Shown here in pieces: positions 5,836 to 48,791 of a DNA stretch of 64,000 nucleotides (the stretch's first letter is position 1; every line of letters starts with the position of its first letter). Both the position numbers and the translations under genes were made by a program. This DNA is from a virus (taxonomy: Duplodnaviria > Heunggongvirae > Uroviricota > Caudoviricetes): IMG/VR virus record IMGVR_UViG_2609460125_000009; one strand, written 5' to 3'. Under the pieces are notes generated by a model. It was not told the origin of the DNA. It saw only the letters and a list, made by a program, of their open reading frames with translations, and made no database searches.

Positions 5836-6318
5836 ATGGCGGTAGTTGTGAAAGCTGATTTGTCAAAAATCCCTTCTATTTCAGGAAATAACGGTTATTC
5901 ACTTCGTTGTGAGGAAGTAAAGATAAACGGTGAGTCGGCATATTGCAGCTATTCCGTTTGCCAGCACACCATTCTTGCCTTCAAAGAAAACCGTCTTCCT
6001 CGAACTTCTTTCCAGTCGTGCGCAACCGCTATTAAAGCAGGCAAATGCAAGGCGTTAAAAATGATGGTTGAAGAGATTCGTAAAGGAGAATCTCTGTATT
6101 TCGAAGATATGACCGCGCTCATTAAGGAGGTTGAAGAACGGAATAAACAAGCCAGAACTATAAAACGAAAACGTGACAGTGTAACGATTAATAGCATGGT
6201 TAAGAAGAGCACCACATCACAAACAGCGATCACTGACGTGTATGCGGCGTTGCTTGAAGAAACAACAAAAGAAACACATGAGCAAATCGATCAACATATG
6301 GAGGCAAAACAACAATGA
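5836..6318 (+). CDS. hypothetical protein
   Basis: 160-aa ORF, stop overlaps ligase start. Confidence 0.5.
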   Translation: MAVVVKADLSKIPSISGNNGYSLRCEEVKINGESAYCSYSVCQHTILAFKENRLPRTSFQSCATAIKAGKCKALKMMVEEIRKGESLYFEDMTALIKEVEERNKQARTIKRKRDSVTINSMVKKSTTSQTAITDVYAALLEETTKETHEQIDQHMEAKQQ

Positions 6319-8012: not shown

Positions 8013-8161
8013 TTCCATACATCTCATTAGCTTTTATGGGTGGCTTCCTTATCGGCTTCGGCATCTGTCGTGATTTAATTAAGCAGGAACTTAAAACCAA
8101 AACACTGTGCATCGGAAAGCGTGTGTATCGGGTAGTTCATGAAACAAAGGTTAGAAAATGA
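8009..8161 (+). CDS. small membrane protein (50 aa), begins MIPYI on the recurring 13-mer AATGATTCCATAC
   Basis: ATG 8009 overlaps previous stop; TM helix; C-terminal similarity to the 7634 ORF. Confidence 0.4.
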   Translation: MIPYISLAFMGGFLIGFGICRDLIKQELKTKTLCIGKRVYRVVHETKVRK

Positions 8162-8448
8162 GCAATTTAACTTCTTGGGACTGGTGGTTGGCCACCTATT
8201 TCTTAGCGGCCGGAGTCGCATTCGCCTTTTACGTAGGTCAGTTAGTCGTAAAACTGCTGCTGATTAAATTTGCCAGTCATAAACGTATCGATGATGGTCT
8301 GTGGCGTCTTGGCACCCTGGTGGAAACTCGCTACGGGCAACTTAAGGAGAACGAAACCATTACTATCCAAGCGAAACGATTCACTGCCACCATCACAAGA
8401 ACACCTAGTCGTAGAGTGGCCTTGATCAAAAAAGTCACAACCGAATAA
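8158..8448 (+). CDS. membrane protein (96 aa)
   Basis: N-terminal TM helix (WWLATYFLAAGVAFAFYVGQLVV). Confidence 0.5.
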   Translation: MSNLTSWDWWLATYFLAAGVAFAFYVGQLVVKLLLIKFASHKRIDDGLWRLGTLVETRYGQLKENETITIQAKRFTATITRTPSRRVALIKKVTTE

Positions 8449-9224
8449 AAACATGGTGATAAGTATTTACTTACTTATCTTTTATGTATAAGATGACTTT
8501 GTTTTCGTTGAGACGCGACTGTTTGAACTTAAATACAAGTGCAAACGAAGAAGTCTATCTGGCAGTAGCCTAATAAGCCAAACACCAGCGAGGTCAGTTT
8601 CCAGCCTCGTTACCGAAATGGGACACACTGAGCGAGTGTGATTGCAGAACGCAGGAGGGAACATTCATGTTCCCTCCGATGAAGTAACAGAATGGGCGGT
8701 TGGTATATTTTCAACTCCATATGACTCCCGGATTCTTAGCCACTGACCGCCCATCCTGTTACGTCATTTTGTTCAATTATGTCGTTTATACTGGGTTAAA
8801 AAGCGGCGACGTAGCCCGGCTGGTATGGTTAGCCAGCACACAACGTTGAGGCCATTACATTTTTATCAATTCTAAGGTTCTATTCACAGAGATACCGGCG
8901 AGCGTTGATATGTAACATGTTGGGCAAACATTCAATCGGAGTAGTGGCCTCAACGTTGTGAAGACAGGATTGTTGTGTAGGTTTAACCACTGTTGCCATT
9001 GGTGCCTGTTTTCACAACAAATGATTCCATACATCACATTGTATAAATTACAAAGTAGGTGCTGTCCTCAGAAACATCATCTACTTAAAGATTTTGCCTT
9101 CTATTGAGCGAAGTCGAAAACGTCTGGCACTAACGGAAAGTGCAAGTAGCGGTGTGTTTCCTGGCAGAAACTAACACCGCCGCGATTGGCACTGTTGAGT
9201 AATAAATACTGGCAGTGCTGAATT

Positions 9225-9299
9225 GATGGTGTAGCTCAGCGGTAGAGCAGTTGGCTGTTAACCAACTGGTCGGTGGTTCGAATCCACCCACCATCGCCA
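9225..9299 (+). tRNA. tRNA-Asn (anticodon GTT)
   Basis: Manually folded cloverleaf: acceptor gatggtg/caccatc, D-arm gctc-agcggta-gagc, anticodon loop ctGTTaa, T-arm ggtgg-ttcgaat-ccacc, discriminator G + CCA. Confidence 0.85.
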
Positions 9300-9304
9300 A
9301 TTTA

Positions 9305-9391
9305 GGGGAGTTAGTCCGTAGAGGTAGCGGGGTAGACTGTAAATCTACTGTCATTGCGACTCGGGTGGTTCGACTCCATCACTCCCCACCA
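9305..9391 (+). tRNA. tRNA-Tyr (anticodon GTA), type II with long variable arm
   Basis: acceptor ggggagt/actcccc, anticodon arm gtaga-ctGTAaa-tctac, T-arm ggtgg-ttcgact-ccatc, discriminator A + CCA; D-arm pairing less clean. Confidence 0.75.
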
Positions 9392-9395
9392 AATT

Positions 9396-9471
9396 GCCGG
9401 TTTAGCTCAGTTGGTAGAGCGCCTGCCTTGTAAGCAGGATGTCAGCGGTTCGATCCCGTTAACCGGCACCA
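9396..9471 (+). tRNA. tRNA-Thr (anticodon TGT)
   Basis: acceptor gccggtt/aaccggc, D-arm gctc-agttggta-gagc, anticodon arm cctgc-ctTGTaa-gcagg, T-arm agcgg-ttcgatc-ccgtt, A + CCA. Confidence 0.85.
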
Positions 9472-9835
9472 ACACAACAGGTAAGAGCATTGGGCGAATC
9501 GGCGATACTGACCCACAAGCCCGTAAATCGATAGAGTCAGACCAGTGCTCTTACCGTTGTGAGGAAGTGCAGCTCTTTGAAGCAACCAGAAGATAAGCAT
9601 CTGGCTTCACAACACAACGATAAGATCATTACGGTTAATCGTCGTTCATGTGCACAATGACTGGTCGAAAGGTAGTGATCTTACCGTTGTGGTGGATTCG
9701 CAGACTGATGCGATAGCTTTCTTGGATGTTAGGGAAATGCGGCCGCAAATCTTCCCTTTCGCGAGCGGTGATCGTCCGTAGTCCTAATTGGCTGCACCGT
9801 ATGCCGGAGATTCAGTACCGGCCACCACAACGGCC

Positions 9836-9922
9836 GGAGAGTAGGGAGCATGGTGCTCAAGCGGTCTTGAAAACCGTCCCATTGCGCAAGCGATGATGGT
9901 TCGATTCCATTACTCTCCGCCA
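9836..9922 (+). tRNA. tRNA-like gene, probably tRNA-Ser (anticodon TGA), non-canonical D-arm
   Basis: acceptor ggagagt/actctcc, anticodon arm gcggt-ctTGAaa-accgt, long variable arm, T-arm gatgg-ttcgatt-ccatt, G + CCA; D-arm does not fold cleanly. Confidence 0.45.
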
Positions 9923-10077
9923 GACACAGCGTTGAGCGGTTTGGCCTTTTAATCACCCAGATTAAGACTCCGCTAACATAAACCAGACCGCTCAACGCTG
10001 TGATAGACAATTACGGCAGACGTTCTTAACCATAGCTTGCTAACATCCTAGCAACACTTTTTTTCAGCGCAAAATTC

Positions 10078-10100
10078 AAAGGGGCTTCGGCCCCTTTTTT
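10078..10100 (+). terminator. rho-independent terminator after the tRNA cluster
   Basis: aaaggggc-ttcg-gcccc followed by tttttt. Confidence 0.7.
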
Positions 10101-10143
10101 GCAACTGAAAGAGTCAAGTCTACGAACTTTGTAGGAAGAAATA

Positions 10144-10494
10144 ATGACCAGCAAAGATAACACACCACTAAAAGTCACCCCTGAACACATTGAACAACTC
10201 ATTCAAAGTGAACATTATTTCACTGCATATGATGCCAGCCACGGGGATAACTTCATCTCCGTTTACAATTCAAAAACAGATATCGACAAATGTCATGAGT
10301 CGTTAAAACTCTTAACGTTCTGCGTTATGGTTCTCAAAAATGGATATACCGTAACGGGAAAATCTGCGTGCGTAAGACCAGAAATCTTCAACTTTGATGT
10401 TGGTCGCGAGTACGCTCGAAAAGATGCTATCGATCAAATCTGGCCCCTGGAAGGCTATCTCCTGAAGCAAAAGTGGCATGAGGCAAAGCAATGA
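10144..10494 (+). CDS. hypothetical protein
   Basis: 116-aa ORF with AGGA RBS. Confidence 0.55.
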   Translation: MTSKDNTPLKVTPEHIEQLIQSEHYFTAYDASHGDNFISVYNSKTDIDKCHESLKLLTFCVMVLKNGYTVTGKSACVRPEIFNFDVGREYARKDAIDQIWPLEGYLLKQKWHEAKQ

Positions 10495-10946: not shown

Positions 10947-12050
10947 ATGAAAAATAGCTTTGACAGAGCACGCGCTGCGGAGAACACCTCAAAAGAGGCG
11001 ATTGAGTATCTCGAAAGAGCATCTCAAATGCAGGCCGTTATGATCTCCCAGGTCAGCAATGACATGAGATTCTCGGACGCATTCATGTTATTCACTCGCT
11101 TATCTCTGCTGATAACAAGACGTCGGCCAGAGATCGCTGTTCATTGTATTTTGATACATGTTTTGCCGCACATTGCCGATGTAAAAGTAAGTGATATTAA
11201 TAGGTTCATGGTGAACCAACTGGTCAACCCACTAATACTGGATGGCAAAATTGTTATGGGTCGCCGCGTTTTCTCTCTGATGAAGCAGTTCCTCAGCTGG
11301 TGCGCCTTCCAGGGGATGATCGACGTGTCACCGTTAAACGATATGTCACTTAACAAAGTTGCCGGTGGCGCAAAGCCCACACCTCGCGAGCGGAAGCTGA
11401 CCGACGCAGAGGTATGGGTGTTCTGGAATATATGGGACTACTTCAATGTGTGTGCTGGTACAAAATGGGCGGCCAGGCTATGTCTTGTATCCGCAAGACG
11501 ACCTGACGAAGTACTGCGGGCTAAAAAAAGTGAGTTCAATCTTAAGCGTGGGGTTTGGAATCAAGGCAAGAGGAACAAATCTGCCCGTGAGCATTCTCTG
11601 CCTTTAAGCTCATTAATGCGCACTTGTATTGAAGAGTTGTTCGAATATGGTAAAGACAGCCAGTGGCTCGTGCCTTCGAATAAAAAAATCGGGAAAGACC
11701 TTCCTATGTCTAAAGTGGCAATAGCCCAGGCATTACGTCGTATTCTGGAACGACCAGAACTGATGGAGCTTGAGCCATTTACACCCCGAGATTTGCGCCG
11801 TACTGCGCGTAGTTACTTCCCAGCATTAGGCATAAGCCAGGAGGTATCACGTAAAATCATGAACCACAGTCTTGAGGGGATAGATCGGGTCTACGACCGG
11901 CACGATTATATGGACGAGATGCGAGACGCCTTAGAAAGTTTCTCGACGTACATCGCATCAATCGTAGAGCAACCGGATTTAGACGAAATTGACCACAAAT
12001 TTAAGGGAGATCGTCTATCAACAGAGCTTATTCGTGTAAATTTTTCATAG
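10947..12050 (+). CDS. tyrosine site-specific recombinase/integrase
   Basis: C-terminal catalytic domain with R ... HSL ... R ... Y pattern (RDLRRTARSY, NHSLEG, VYDRHDY); no clear RBS so start is uncertain. Confidence 0.75.
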   Translation: MKNSFDRARAAENTSKEAIEYLERASQMQAVMISQVSNDMRFSDAFMLFTRLSLLITRRRPEIAVHCILIHVLPHIADVKVSDINRFMVNQLVNPLILDGKIVMGRRVFSLMKQFLSWCAFQGMIDVSPLNDMSLNKVAGGAKPTPRERKLTDAEVWVFWNIWDYFNVCAGTKWAARLCLVSARRPDEVLRAKKSEFNLKRGVWNQGKRNKSAREHSLPLSSLMRTCIEELFEYGKDSQWLVPSNKKIGKDLPMSKVAIAQALRRILERPELMELEPFTPRDLRRTARSYFPALGISQEVSRKIMNHSLEGIDRVYDRHDYMDEMRDALESFSTYIASIVEQPDLDEIDHKFKGDRLSTELIRVNFS

Positions 12051-20162: not shown

Positions 20163-20435
20163 AAAGAATTATGGCGCTTGTTGAGGAAGTCACTCCTCTT
20201 ACGCACTTTGTTTTGCCATGCCGGCAGTTAGCTTCTGCCTTTGACTATTCATGCGGCAACCCCGCATTTCGCCACAATGGGCAATTCACTTTTATGGAAT
20301 AAACTGGCCGTTGTGTCGATTTAATTAGCATGGCCTTACCATGCTAATTTATTCAACTTGTACAATCCTACAAATCTATCCACTCAGGCTTACACCGTCT
20401 TCGTTATTGTAGAAATGAGGATCATCAGCGTTGAA

Positions 20436-20651
20436 TCAGCTTAGAGCAACGACATTTGCTGCTGCTGGGCCTTTAGCCCCATTCTCGATAGAGAATTCGA
20501 CCTGCTGGCCTTCTTCCAAAGTGCGGAAATTATTACTCTGAATTGCCGAAAAATGTACAAAAACATCTTTACTGCCATCAGCAGGAGAAATAAAGCCAAA
20601 GCCTTTATCAGAGTTAAACCATTTTACTAAACCAGTCATTTTATTAGACAT
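20436..20651 (-). CDS. cold-shock protein, CspA family
   Basis: [21 protein letters not shown] ... VFVHFSAI with RNP1/RNP2-like motifs; start moved to the internal Met matching the CspA N-terminus; ~300-nt leader upstream. Confidence 0.85.
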
Positions 20652-20980
20652 AGATATTACCTTCTTAATTTTGTGAGCCACATAGTGCGGCGAGAATTTG
20701 ATCTGTATAGATTGGGACTTACTTAGGCACTTAAGGAGGAGACTCACGAAGAAGGGAAATCAGAAGATAACACTGAACTGAGACTGCTTTACTAAAACTG
20801 CTTACATAAGGTCTGTCTTGCAAACCAACGATGCTATTAACGCATACCCCTTCTTTTCATGCAACCTTTATTTTTCAAAGATAACTAATTTTTGTCACCA
20901 TTGGTTTAGTAAACGTTAACGAACCAGACGATGCCAGACACCTTTACAGAGAACAGATGCCCGCCAATTGGCGGGCATCA

Positions 20981-30013: not shown

Positions 30014-30491
30014 TAGCACCAACCACTGCGGTGAGTAGCCAGCTCACCGCATTCGTATCAGCTCATTATCCACTGTGGTCTGCAGTCCTCTCTTCCTACA
30101 TATCTGCTAACCACTGTAGCGAGTAGACAGCCTTTCATTCGCATCAAACAACCACTATGGTGAGTATTGGAGTGAGATGTACAGCGGGTATCCACTATGG
30201 TGAGTAAGCCTTTGCTGTTTTCAGTGGATATCCACTCGCCACAGTGGATACGCTCAAAGATGAGGGCGACAACAACCACTATAGACAGTAAATTTTCCAA
30301 GATACCCAGTGACCACTAACCTCGCAGCCCTTGTTTCATCAGTGTTAGTGATCACTAACATTTGATTCAGTATTTGCATTCTACTGCCTACAGTGGTTAT
30401 CAACAGATAACGATACTCACTATAGTGGATAGCGAATTACAGATATAAGTAAGGCTCACTACAGTGGATAGTGAGCCTTACTACTAACTAC
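30011..30491. repeat. iteron array downstream of rep (incA-like): ~10 copies of the palindromic core CCACT(A/G)T(A/G)GTGG in both orientations
   Basis: e.g. aaccactatggtgagta (30141, 30181), accactatagacagta (30265), ctcactatagtggatag (30406), ctcactacagtggatagtgag (30445). Confidence 0.7.
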
Positions 30492-48705: not shown

Positions 48706-48726
48706 TTTGTTCTGGAGTCTGTAATT

Positions 48727-48791
48727 AGCCTGCTTCTGTATATATAAATAACTACATATTAATTATTAATATACGGAAGCAGGCTGTTTTA
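48727..48791 (+). terminator. long-stem hairpin terminator, twin of 1363-1426
   Basis: agcctgcttctgtatat ... atatacggaagcaggct then gtttta; same G.U position as the first copy. Confidence 0.55.

Follow-up and report, generated by a model that had tools for sequence, protein, structure and literature searches.

The stretch of viral DNA analysed here (IMG/VR record IMGVR_UViG_2609460125_000009, Caudoviricetes; 64,000 nucleotides, referred to throughout as the window) carries four tRNA genes interspersed with long imperfect hairpins. The hairpins are conserved as RNA structures on the tRNA strand, and they form a large unannotated RNA family of Enterobacterales phages, with members in SSU5-like phages, P1/D6/P7, HK620-like lambdoid phages, Phapecoctavirus, a Pantoea phage and many IMG/VR contigs. 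From the comparison of sequences and predicted folds, it seems likely that the segment between 8.5 and 10.1 kb forms part of an SSU5-like phage-plasmid and represents a non-coding RNA operon of modular build, in which the long hairpins would serve as RNase III-type processing or insulator signals.

Structure, conservation and distribution of the hairpins

Five long hairpins, designated HpA, Hp1, Hp2, Hp3 and Hp4, lie between 8678 and 10002, all on the tRNA strand, with stems of 19-27 bp and loops of 32-82 nt (coordinates in Table 1). All five were present in both the minimum-energy and the centroid fold of the entire 1.5 kb; their folding z-scores ranged from -4.7 to -9.3, and none of 200 shuffled sequences folded as well. 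Over the + strand of the 64-kb window we counted eight hairpins of this class, four of which, plus the bulged Hp2, fall within 8678-10002; Markov shuffles gave 0-4 per 64 kb. Ten of the window's 40 CACAAC sites are found in 8839-9831, with no over-representation of the motif window-wide. Between the long hairpins there are shorter closures of reverse polarity, GUUGUG...CACAAC, and the same GUUGUG is common to Hp1 and to one of these closures, Hp1b. An earlier note on this DNA, made from the letters alone, had listed long hairpins around the tRNAs, and every one of them was recovered by the repeat finder and by folding with small corrections of coordinates. In the case of Hp2 the hairpin itself stood but its 3' arm had been placed about 7 nt off, and a 10-bp hairpin reported at 8653-8676 proved to be 11 bp long at 8654-8677. 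HpA and the perfect 12-bp closure at 9684-9695/9822-9833 had escaped that note. HpA belongs to the same family, and in P7 and HK620 its versions start with CACAACAGGUAAG. The position of the short hairpin at 8654-8677 is taken in relatives by a GGUAGGGCA..UGCCCUUACC hairpin, that is, by a family stem with a tiny loop.

The stem is built in two parts. The lower stem is a conserved helix of 6-7 bp, CACAACG/CGUUGUG, above which lies a zone prone to mismatches at positions 8 and 9: 25 of 58 copies have no pair at position 9, an A·C mismatch is seen in Hp3, and copies of the Hp2 type carry a bulged A. The upper stem, of about 11-13 bp, follows the pattern R10 A11 G12.. C15 A16 Y17·G U18-A. Among the 58 copies, in which positions 1-7 and 11-12 of those drawn from IMG/VR were fixed by the search pattern, the expected pairs were A11-U in 55, G12-C in 50, C15-G in 45, A16-U in 44 and U18-A in 53; position 17 was U·G in 28 and C-G in 16. 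The apical domain is hypervariable and free, and stems are identical even where orthologous loops differ.

Covariance analysis against relatives, suggested in the earlier note as a check, showed that the pairing is conserved. Across 58 distinct arm pairs, 92.2% of cells were paired, compared with 77.9% for shuffled partners and 37-56% for slid partners, and compensatory double changes were observed at 18 of the 20 stem pairs. The covariation score was 0.465, as against 0.187, and none of 500 shuffles attained the observed score. To orient hairpins independently of their pairing we used a G[AG]AU[GU]C motif located just 3' of the hairpin. In the 27 unique hairpins oriented in this way, stem irregularities comprised 28 G·U and a single A·C. 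Selection on the structure therefore acts in the RNA transcribed from the tRNA strand, since a double-stranded DNA site would show no asymmetry between G·U and A·C.

The family reaches far beyond tRNA clusters, a feature that had not been noticed in the earlier note. SSU5-like phages, D6 and P7 carry this type of hairpin four to six times per genome in their tRNA clusters, and a Phapecoctavirus has one behind tRNA-Thr. HK620 carries one in its late leader, with qut on one side and tQ on the other, and a Pantoea phage-like contig (L021) has one located downstream of a repressor of the cI type. A degenerate pattern scan of IMG/VR returned at least 120 loci; among the matches listed, 98 show 14 or more stem pairs, and the majority come from contigs of about 40 kb without tRNAs. 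The HK620-type module was found in 157 of 5426 complete E. coli genomes, and nearly all of the matches listed have no feature annotated over it. A scan of genome contigs for the family pattern gave mostly chance matches from all phyla, those in Pantoea allii and Rahnella being the only real copies among the matches listed. No Rfam family covered the hairpin at any locus tested, and a literature search for an earlier description of the hairpins, or of the phage element resembling a transfer-messenger RNA (tmRNA) that is described below, yielded nothing relevant. For finding family copies, explicit stem scans were preferred to a two-arm covariance model, which cannot span the long loops, misses true copies in the window and on T7 is dominated by the CACAAC base. 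If our reading holds, a widespread structured RNA family would be defined, present on more than 100 viral contigs, annotated by neither Rfam nor RefSeq and overlapping at least one questionable coding sequence (CDS), P1 plp.

Resemblance to T7 RNase III sites and predicted processing

Where tRNAs are present, the family hairpins are positioned with respect to their ends. About 93 locus instances have a hairpin beginning -2, +1 or +2 nt past the CCA of tRNA-Thr, tRNA-Ser or tRNA-Asn, and in three instances it ends at the 5' end of a tRNA. In the window, Hp2 begins 1 nt past the CCA of tRNA-Thr, an association of tRNA and hairpin that is kept in P1-like phages and Phapecoctavirus, and Hp4 begins 2 nt past the CCA of tRNA-Ser. 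Hairpins flank every kind of module, including both sides of the tmRNA-resembling element in lambdoid phages.

The upper stem closely resembles the RNase III sites of phage T7. Folding of the T7 R1.1 region gave an upper stem AAGGUCAUUC-GCAA-GAGUGGCCUU, in which the run C-G, A-U, U·G, U-A corresponds exactly to family positions 15-18 and the AAG to positions 10-12. R18.5 folds as AAGGCCACUAC-AGAU-AGUGGUCUU and is close to the upper stem of Hp1, GAGGCCAUUAC/GUAGUGGCCUC, which is also like that of R1.1; the other T7 intergenic sites have AAGG(U/C)C.../...G(G/R)CCUU in common. When Hp1, SSU5 and pJN2-26 copies were set against the folded T7 intergenic regions, the family matched the T7 upper-stem consensus AAGGYC.../...GRCCUU. 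Like the family, the T7 sites (R0.3, R0.5, R1.1, R1.3, R4.7, R6.5 and R18.5) are hairpins standing at the boundaries between units of a polycistronic transcript of a phage. Both have nearly the same upper stem, AAGGYCAYU.../...AGUGGYCUU, with a UA/UG distal box and a U·G wobble (PMC1540722), and in both a zone of mismatches or an internal loop lies beneath it, followed by a lower stem. The two differ in that the family has a hypervariable domain of 25-80 nt instead of the T7 tetraloop or short loop, a lower stem of its own and, at the place of the asymmetric internal loop of T7, complete pairing in many copies. Furthermore, the family separates tRNAs and small RNAs rather than mRNAs, its hosts are temperate phages and phage-plasmids, and its cleavage by RNase III is a prediction.

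Substrates of E. coli RNase III typically span two helical turns (Pertzev and Nicholson; PMC1540722), a length that coaxial stacking may help to reach, and the stems of the family, with 19-27 pairs, have this length. Recognition by the enzyme is favoured by the distal box, whose canonical form is UA/UG and whose U·G pair is stringently required (PMC1540722). In sites of the R1.1 type this box lies about 11 nt from the scissile bond. It is present in the family, though the 16 copies with C-G lack the wobble. Internal loops restrict cleavage and can limit it to one strand (PMC1540722); the mismatch-prone positions 8-9 are placed where T7 sites carry their internal loop. Position 8 is a G-C pair in 22 of the 58 copies, and the register with the scissile bond is approximate. 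The earlier note had offered processing signals for a tRNA polycistron as one possibility. This is the best-supported reading in view of the conservation as RNA, the position 1-2 nt past CCA and the T7 match, with cleavage itself a prediction.

We infer a pathway in which RNase III would cut in the lower part of the stem, the 3'-arm cut falling between the C and the GUUGUG of ..CGUUGUG when the stem is aligned with T7 R1.1; where a copy is fully paired, the 5' arm would be cut as well, about 2 bp away. Such cuts would separate the tmRNA-resembling RNA, tRNA-Asn/Tyr/Thr, a domain resembling the small RNA STnc100, and tRNA-Ser, each tRNA being left with a trailer of about 9 nt for trimming by exonucleases. 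The leftover half-sites, 5'-GUUGUG ... CACAAC-3', would be mutually complementary, so that each released module could fold shut, in the manner that the reverse-polarity closures illustrate. Another possible partner for the GUUGUG arm is the CACAAC that comes next downstream, and the segments between hairpins (Hp1b, the 9556-9613 spacer and the module at 9684-9833 termed module X) are therefore closed domains.

There is precedent for RNase III cutting 3' of a tRNA, at alaT in rRNA operons (PMC6212723). The stalks of rRNA operons and the RNase III site of the phage T4 tRNA precursor are likewise long stems beside stable RNAs, which are freed by a double-strand-specific endonuclease. Whereas the rRNA-operon stem encloses the mature RNA, the family stem is a separate hairpin 1-2 nt past CCA, and the loop it encloses is seemingly dispensable. 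If the proposed processing is correct, tRNAs of P1-like, SSU5-like and other enterobacterial phages would mature via dedicated RNase III signals 1-2 nt past CCA, and the phage would control its output of tRNAs and small RNAs independently of RNase E sites in the spacers.

Several observations weigh against the proposal. Sixteen of the 58 copies carry C-G in place of U·G at position 17, and distal-box substitutions lowered reactivity more than 5-fold in a minimal substrate. Several copies have G-C at the pair beside the predicted scissile bond, a pair that acts in vitro as a catalytic antideterminant. T7 sites offer no counterpart to the lower stem CACAACG/CGUUGUG, which is strongly conserved and could bind something else. 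The position of the 3'-arm cut leans on the R1.1 site, which we take to lie after ..CCUUUAU, at T7 nt 5887. Our literature search found no transcript, end-mapping or cleavage data for any family member, and a σ70 promoter scan of 8100-10400 found no promoter. A by-eye candidate at 8466-8494, TTTACT-17-TAAGAT, matches the promoter consensus at 8 of 12 positions and is not claimed. In addition, 38 IMG/VR copies in the 58-copy set were oriented by having more G·U than A·C, which inflates the G·U counts of that set and leaves the 27-hairpin test unaffected. Lastly, many copies are related by descent, so copy counts are not counts of independent events.

Long hairpins of unrelated sequence, with 19-28 pairs and loops of 43-151 nt, were also seen at tRNA ends in phages DE16 (L009; 1076-1273, 1427-1615, 1844-1959 and 2894-2990) and EC6 (L011; 2071-2211). 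Long stems beside phage tRNAs may be a general design.

Alternative explanations

It is conceivable, though unlikely, that the hairpins are RNA elements that RNase III does not cut, acting as insulators, as barriers to exonucleases or as sites for another factor that reads CACAACG/CGUUGUG, such as RNase P or a double-stranded-RNA-binding protein. The lower stem is the most conserved part of the structure and is the part that lacks an equivalent in T7 RNase III sites. With the hairpin starting 1-2 nt past CCA, an RNase P-type cut at the base of the stem would leave a near-mature tRNA 3' end, and P1 and P7 are known to use RNase P on the hairpin RNA C4. However, no RCCA follows the 3' arm, where the flanks are AAGA, AGGA, GUGG and AUAG, and the match of upper stem and distal box to T7 would be left unexplained. 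A phage-specific protein is unlikely because the family occurs in unrelated phage lineages.

We give a small chance to a second possibility, that the hairpins or their excised tops are functional small RNAs, decoys or regulators, with the activity in the variable apical domain and the stem as a scaffold. Small stable RNAs were among the readings of the earlier note; excised tops might well build up as such RNAs, but their loops vary strongly from one orthologous copy to another. Sub-hairpins are frequent in the apical domains (32-82 nt), the modules next to the hairpins are members of known prophage small-RNA families (STnc100/PasD), and single family copies are also found in early and late leaders of temperate phages. 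On the other hand, orthologous copies have near-identical stems and unrelated loops (Hp4 compared with pJN2-26; the hairpin following tRNA-Thr in the window, D6 and DE16), and the hairpins are not followed by an intrinsic terminator or an Hfq-type U-tract. We found no U-tract after any family hairpin, the sole clear terminator in the region being that at 10081-10100, and the stems were therefore rejected as intrinsic terminators themselves.

A function at the level of DNA appears very improbable. The hairpins would in this case be sites like attC or like miniature inverted-repeat transposable elements (MITEs), shuffling cassettes of tRNAs and small RNAs, perhaps via the nearby tyrosine recombinase. 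Relatives (Cyrano, CMS-2020a and Klebsiella) do differ at hairpin breakpoints, the hypervariable loops are cargo-like, the length of 78-122 nt and the AAC...GTT ends recall attC, and an integrase gene is located at 10947-12050. Nevertheless, the 28 G·U against one A·C indicate selection of RNA from one strand, whereas attC would show no preference for the transcribed sense. The attC boxes RYYYAAC/GTTRRRY are not matched either: the hairpins have ACACAAC and GTTGTGA, of which only AAC and GTT fit. The integrase has a phage-type central domain and a weak generic-integrase match, with no match to the NCBIfam integron integrase, and P1, D6 and HK620 have the family without this gene. As for a MITE, no target-site duplications were seen, including at the Cyrano and CMS-2020a junctions, and copies occur solely at transcribed non-coding loci, where they have the sense orientation and keep register with tRNA ends, with compensatory changes in their stems.

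Processive antitermination RNAs of the HK022 put type, or cis-acting attenuators, would act on RNA polymerase, and single copies a short way past an early (pL-like, L021) and a late (pR', HK620) promoter, as well as the alternative upstream and downstream CACAAC partners of the GUUGUG arm, are in keeping with such a role. We regard it as highly improbable, given that a single tRNA cluster of 1.3 kb holds five copies, each tied to the 3' end of a tRNA, that there are no terminators between the hairpins and that the RNase III-site match is left unexplained. Mimicry of boxA/Nus antitermination was rejected as well, as GCUCUUA is found in the 3' arms of a subset of copies only and is buried in the duplex. 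A relationship to Y RNA (YrlA) and Ro was likewise discarded, there being no Rfam match in the window and no Ro-type helix, while the sole match in D6 is weak and lies over true tRNAs.

Decayed tRNA genes, another possibility raised in the earlier note, can hardly be the explanation: although the sizes of 78-122 nt approach those of class II tRNAs and perfect T-arm-like hairpins occur in loops of D6 Hp2 (AGGGUUCGAAUCCCU, L006 2140-2175) and of a CMS-2020a copy (CAGAGUUCGACUCUCUG, L003 2866-2885), no cloverleaf was detected by ARAGORN at 70% thresholds or by Rfam at E ≤ 10, terminal stems of 20 bp are not a tRNA feature, it is the stems and not the loops that are conserved, and the family is abundant at tRNA-free loci, with single copies in phages that have no nearby tRNAs. 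The statement in the same note that the hairpins do not fold as tRNAs was borne out, since neither ARAGORN, at default or lowered thresholds, nor Rfam at E ≤ 10 found a tRNA within them. The T-arm-like pieces, found in few loops, suggest that the variable apical domain has now and then picked up fragments of tRNAs.

Other modules and features of the locus

The non-coding RNA operon proposed here would contain further RNA modules that went unnoticed in the earlier note, among them the tmRNA-resembling element and an STnc100-resembling domain (Table 1).

Table 1. Features of the tRNA cluster and its surroundings in the window
Feature	Position	Strand	Basis
tmRNA-resembling module	8501-8650	+	sequence reading, weak Rfam tmRNA matches, homologues, alignments
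Short hairpin, 11 bp	8654-8664/8667-8677	+	repeat finder, folding
HpA, 25 pairs, base GUAACAG/CUGUUAC	8678-8704/8742-8768	+	repeat finder, folding
Hp1, 22 pairs, 76-nt loop	8839-8861/8938-8960	+	repeat finder, folding
Hp1b, 14 nt, reverse-polarity closure GUUGUGAAGACAGG...CCUGUUUUCACAAC	8955-8968/9005-9018	+	repeat finder, folding
tRNA-Asn(GUU)	9225-9299	+	ARAGORN, Rfam
tRNA-Tyr(GUA)	9305-9391	+	ARAGORN, Rfam
tRNA-Thr(UGU)	9396-9471	+	ARAGORN, Rfam
Hp2, bulged A at position 7	9473-9493/9542-9561	+	repeat finder, folding
Spacer module closed by GUUGUGA...UCACAAC, inner hairpin CCAGA-AGAUAAGCA-UCUGG	9556-9613	+	
Hp3, 19-23 pairs, A·C mismatch at position 8	9610-9632/9672-9694	+	repeat finder, folding
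Perfect 12-bp closure	9684-9695/9822-9833	+	repeat finder
Module X, closed by perfect 12-bp helix CCGUUGUGGUGG/CCACCACAACGG	9684-9833	+	
tRNA-Ser(UGA)	9836-9922	+	ARAGORN
Hp4, 21 pairs, CACAGCG/CGCUGUG variant with compensated base pair	9925-9947/9980-10002	+	repeat finder, folding
Intrinsic terminator GGGGC-UUCG-GCCCC then U6	10081-10100	+	read from sequence

The tmRNA-resembling element may be a more surprising object than the hairpins. At 8541-8576 it reads GCA AAC GAA GAA GUC UAU CUG GCA GUA GCC UAA UAA, an open reading frame (ORF; 8541-8570) for ANEEVYLAVA followed by two stop codons (8571-8576); the tag encoded by E. coli ssrA is ANDENYALAA. The 21 distinct tag ORFs, part of which was fixed by the search pattern, all fit AN[DE][DENT]x[YFM][LM][AV][VA]A and a stop, with synonymous changes at third positions and no conserved start codon. 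We thus find a start-less tag ORF in a resume-codon context and under coding constraint. In alignment A3 the ORF is followed by a covarying hairpin. Downstream of the ORF, two H-type pseudoknots with compensatory changes were recognized by eye in A3; they carry no formal score because RNAalifold cannot predict pseudoknots. The helix pairs identified by eye in the element are CCAG/CUGG, CCGA/UCGG, CCAA/UUGG, CUAG/CUAG and CUCCA/UGGAG.

The element, of about 150 nt, is conserved in P1/D6/P7, SSU5-like phages, Felixounavirus, HK620-like phages and Klebsiella phages. Relatives were present in 317 phage records (among them Felixounavirus, HK620, Klebsiella siphophages and P1-like phages), most of those listed having no feature over it, and at a minimum of 120 IMG/VR loci. 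In common with tmRNA (ssrA, including the two-piece form) it has the resume-codon context, a 10-codon tag with a hydrophobic A/V ending, two stops, a stop-codon hairpin and downstream pseudoknots. Unlike tmRNA, it has no detectable acceptor stem, T-arm or CCA in 124 loci: ARAGORN found no tRNA-like domain (acceptor stem with G3·U70, T-arm and CCA) in the window or at those loci, the 64-kb window has no extra T-arm, and inspection of hairpin loops and of the four tRNAs for G3·U70 was negative on both counts. Lowering the ARAGORN thresholds to 80% and 70% produced only spurious permuted-tmRNA and tRNA calls, which we discarded, and Rfam tmRNA models score far below threshold on the element. In a survey of tmRNA genes no enterobacterial phage is represented, the phage tmRNAs it lists being from mycobacteriophages and Bacillus phage G only (PMC4131195). 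A long hairpin, mostly a member of the family, is located within 400 nt downstream of the element in 91 of 118 loci, and in lambdoid phages a family hairpin is found upstream too; the hairpins therefore bound the tag module as well.

A bolder interpretation, which we consider doubtful, is that the locus represents an unrecognized kind of phage RNA operon, in which RNase III-type hairpins with a universal CACAAC/GUUGUG base serve as connectors, cuts in two adjacent ones set free a module that re-closes through its complementary ends, and a tmRNA-type RNA without a tRNA-like domain reprogrammes or exploits host trans-translation. The tag RNA of P1, SSU5, Felix O1-like and HK620-like phages would then add ...YLAVA or ...MMVAA tags, perhaps by pairing with a separate acceptor piece or with the host SmpB-tmRNA machinery.

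The spacer after Hp2 (GAAGUGCAGCUCUUUGAAGCAACCAGAAGAUAAGCAUCUGGCUUCACAAC, 9543-9617) is 94-97% identical in P1-like phages (P1 NC_005856 69572-69645). The P1 copy underlies the annotated plp (putative lipoprotein) CDS, which may overlap, or be mistaken for, a conserved non-coding RNA.

Both ends of module X align with STnc100/PasD-resembling modules that stand directly behind a family hairpin in D6 and L021. The hairpin is fused to the STnc100-resembling module in D6 (L006 2766-2886) and in L021 (10129-10258), with 39.6 and 32.6 bits, respectively. Module X itself gave no match to the Rfam STnc100/PasD model RF02076 in the window at E ≤ 10, and from the alignment of its ends it would be at most a relative of STnc100/PasD. 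Both STnc100 and PasD have been described as small RNAs of prophages (bioRxiv 10.64898/2026.05.13.724894). The STnc100-resembling modules and module X are all located in leader or accessory regions of phages; the family hairpin lies outside the Rfam STnc100 model and is also found without STnc100. Elsewhere in the window, a short-loop CACAACGG...CCAUUGUG hairpin at 20273-20315 (- strand) scores 23 bits with the arm model and is followed by GCGAAAUGCGGGGUUGCCGCAUGAA, like the start of the STnc100-resembling modules. It lies just downstream of an Rfam cspA thermoregulator match (20411-20829, - strand; 185.7 bits).

Shared stems coincide with the breakpoints of mosaic relatives. In Cyrano, Thr-CCA-ACACAAU is joined to tRNA-Ser and 9478-9835, a segment between two CACAA(C/T) sites, is gone. 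One CMS-2020a genome has Hp2 and Hp3 fused and another has different hairpins and modules in their place, while Klebsiella relatives break at 8854, 9546 and 9826. The stems therefore probably act also as recombination joints at which modules are shuffled. If so, they mark the joints for exchange of tRNA and small-RNA modules among unrelated phage lineages, which would explain the mosaicism of the clusters. The PeSL cassettes of T4-type phages, which lie beside ORFs, reportedly consist of an early promoter together with a stem-loop. Like the family, they are said to be short conserved stem-loop modules that bound variable segments and coincide with recombination joints; the family differs in that it has no promoter and that selection is clearly on RNA pairing.

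Over 8400-10150 the identity to the Escherichia phages CMS-2020a and Cyrano is 96.5-98%. Segments of this region recur in SSU5-like phage-plasmids of Klebsiella and Salmonella, as well as in D6 and P7, which are P1-like phages. The adjoining genes encode an ATP-dependent ligase, a gp49/66-family protein, a glutaredoxin, a tyrosine integrase and CobT, and match an SSU5-type phage-plasmid. The four tRNA or tRNA-like genes recognized in the earlier note correspond to the ARAGORN calls for Asn, Tyr, Thr and Ser, all on the + strand. Rfam supports three of the four; tRNA-Ser matches the tRNA-Sec model with 46.6 bits, the threshold being 47. Beyond the tRNAs Rfam adds no family in the region even at E ≤ 10, apart from weak sub-threshold tmRNA matches and a terminator-only match, also weak, at 10076-10099. 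The terminator at 10081-10100 is likely to be the end of the non-coding RNA operon.

Some further observations concern tRNA-Ser and other parts of the window. The tRNA-Ser(UGA) at 9836-9922 scores higher with the Rfam tRNA-Sec model than with the general tRNA model and is an atypical class II tRNA; for its counterpart in D6, the D6 record gives no amino acid from tRNAscan-SE. Phage DE16 (vB_EcoM_DE16, L009) has at about 1664-1757 a sequence resembling tRNA-Ser, GGAAGGGC...CUUGAAAAC...GGGAGUUCGACUCUCCC...CCGCCA, which is not called by ARAGORN and is unannotated in the record; a good promoter, TTGACA...TAGATT, lies ahead of it. Long inverted repeats (CCACUGUGGCGAGUGGAUA.../...UACUCGCUACAGUGG) cluster at 30111-30251 on both strands. 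Finally, two copies of one palindrome with a 19-bp stem (GCCUGCUUCUGUAUAUAUA...UAUAUACGGAAGCAGGC) are located 47 kb apart, at 1363-1419 and 48726-48786, and could be operators, terminators or repeat elements.

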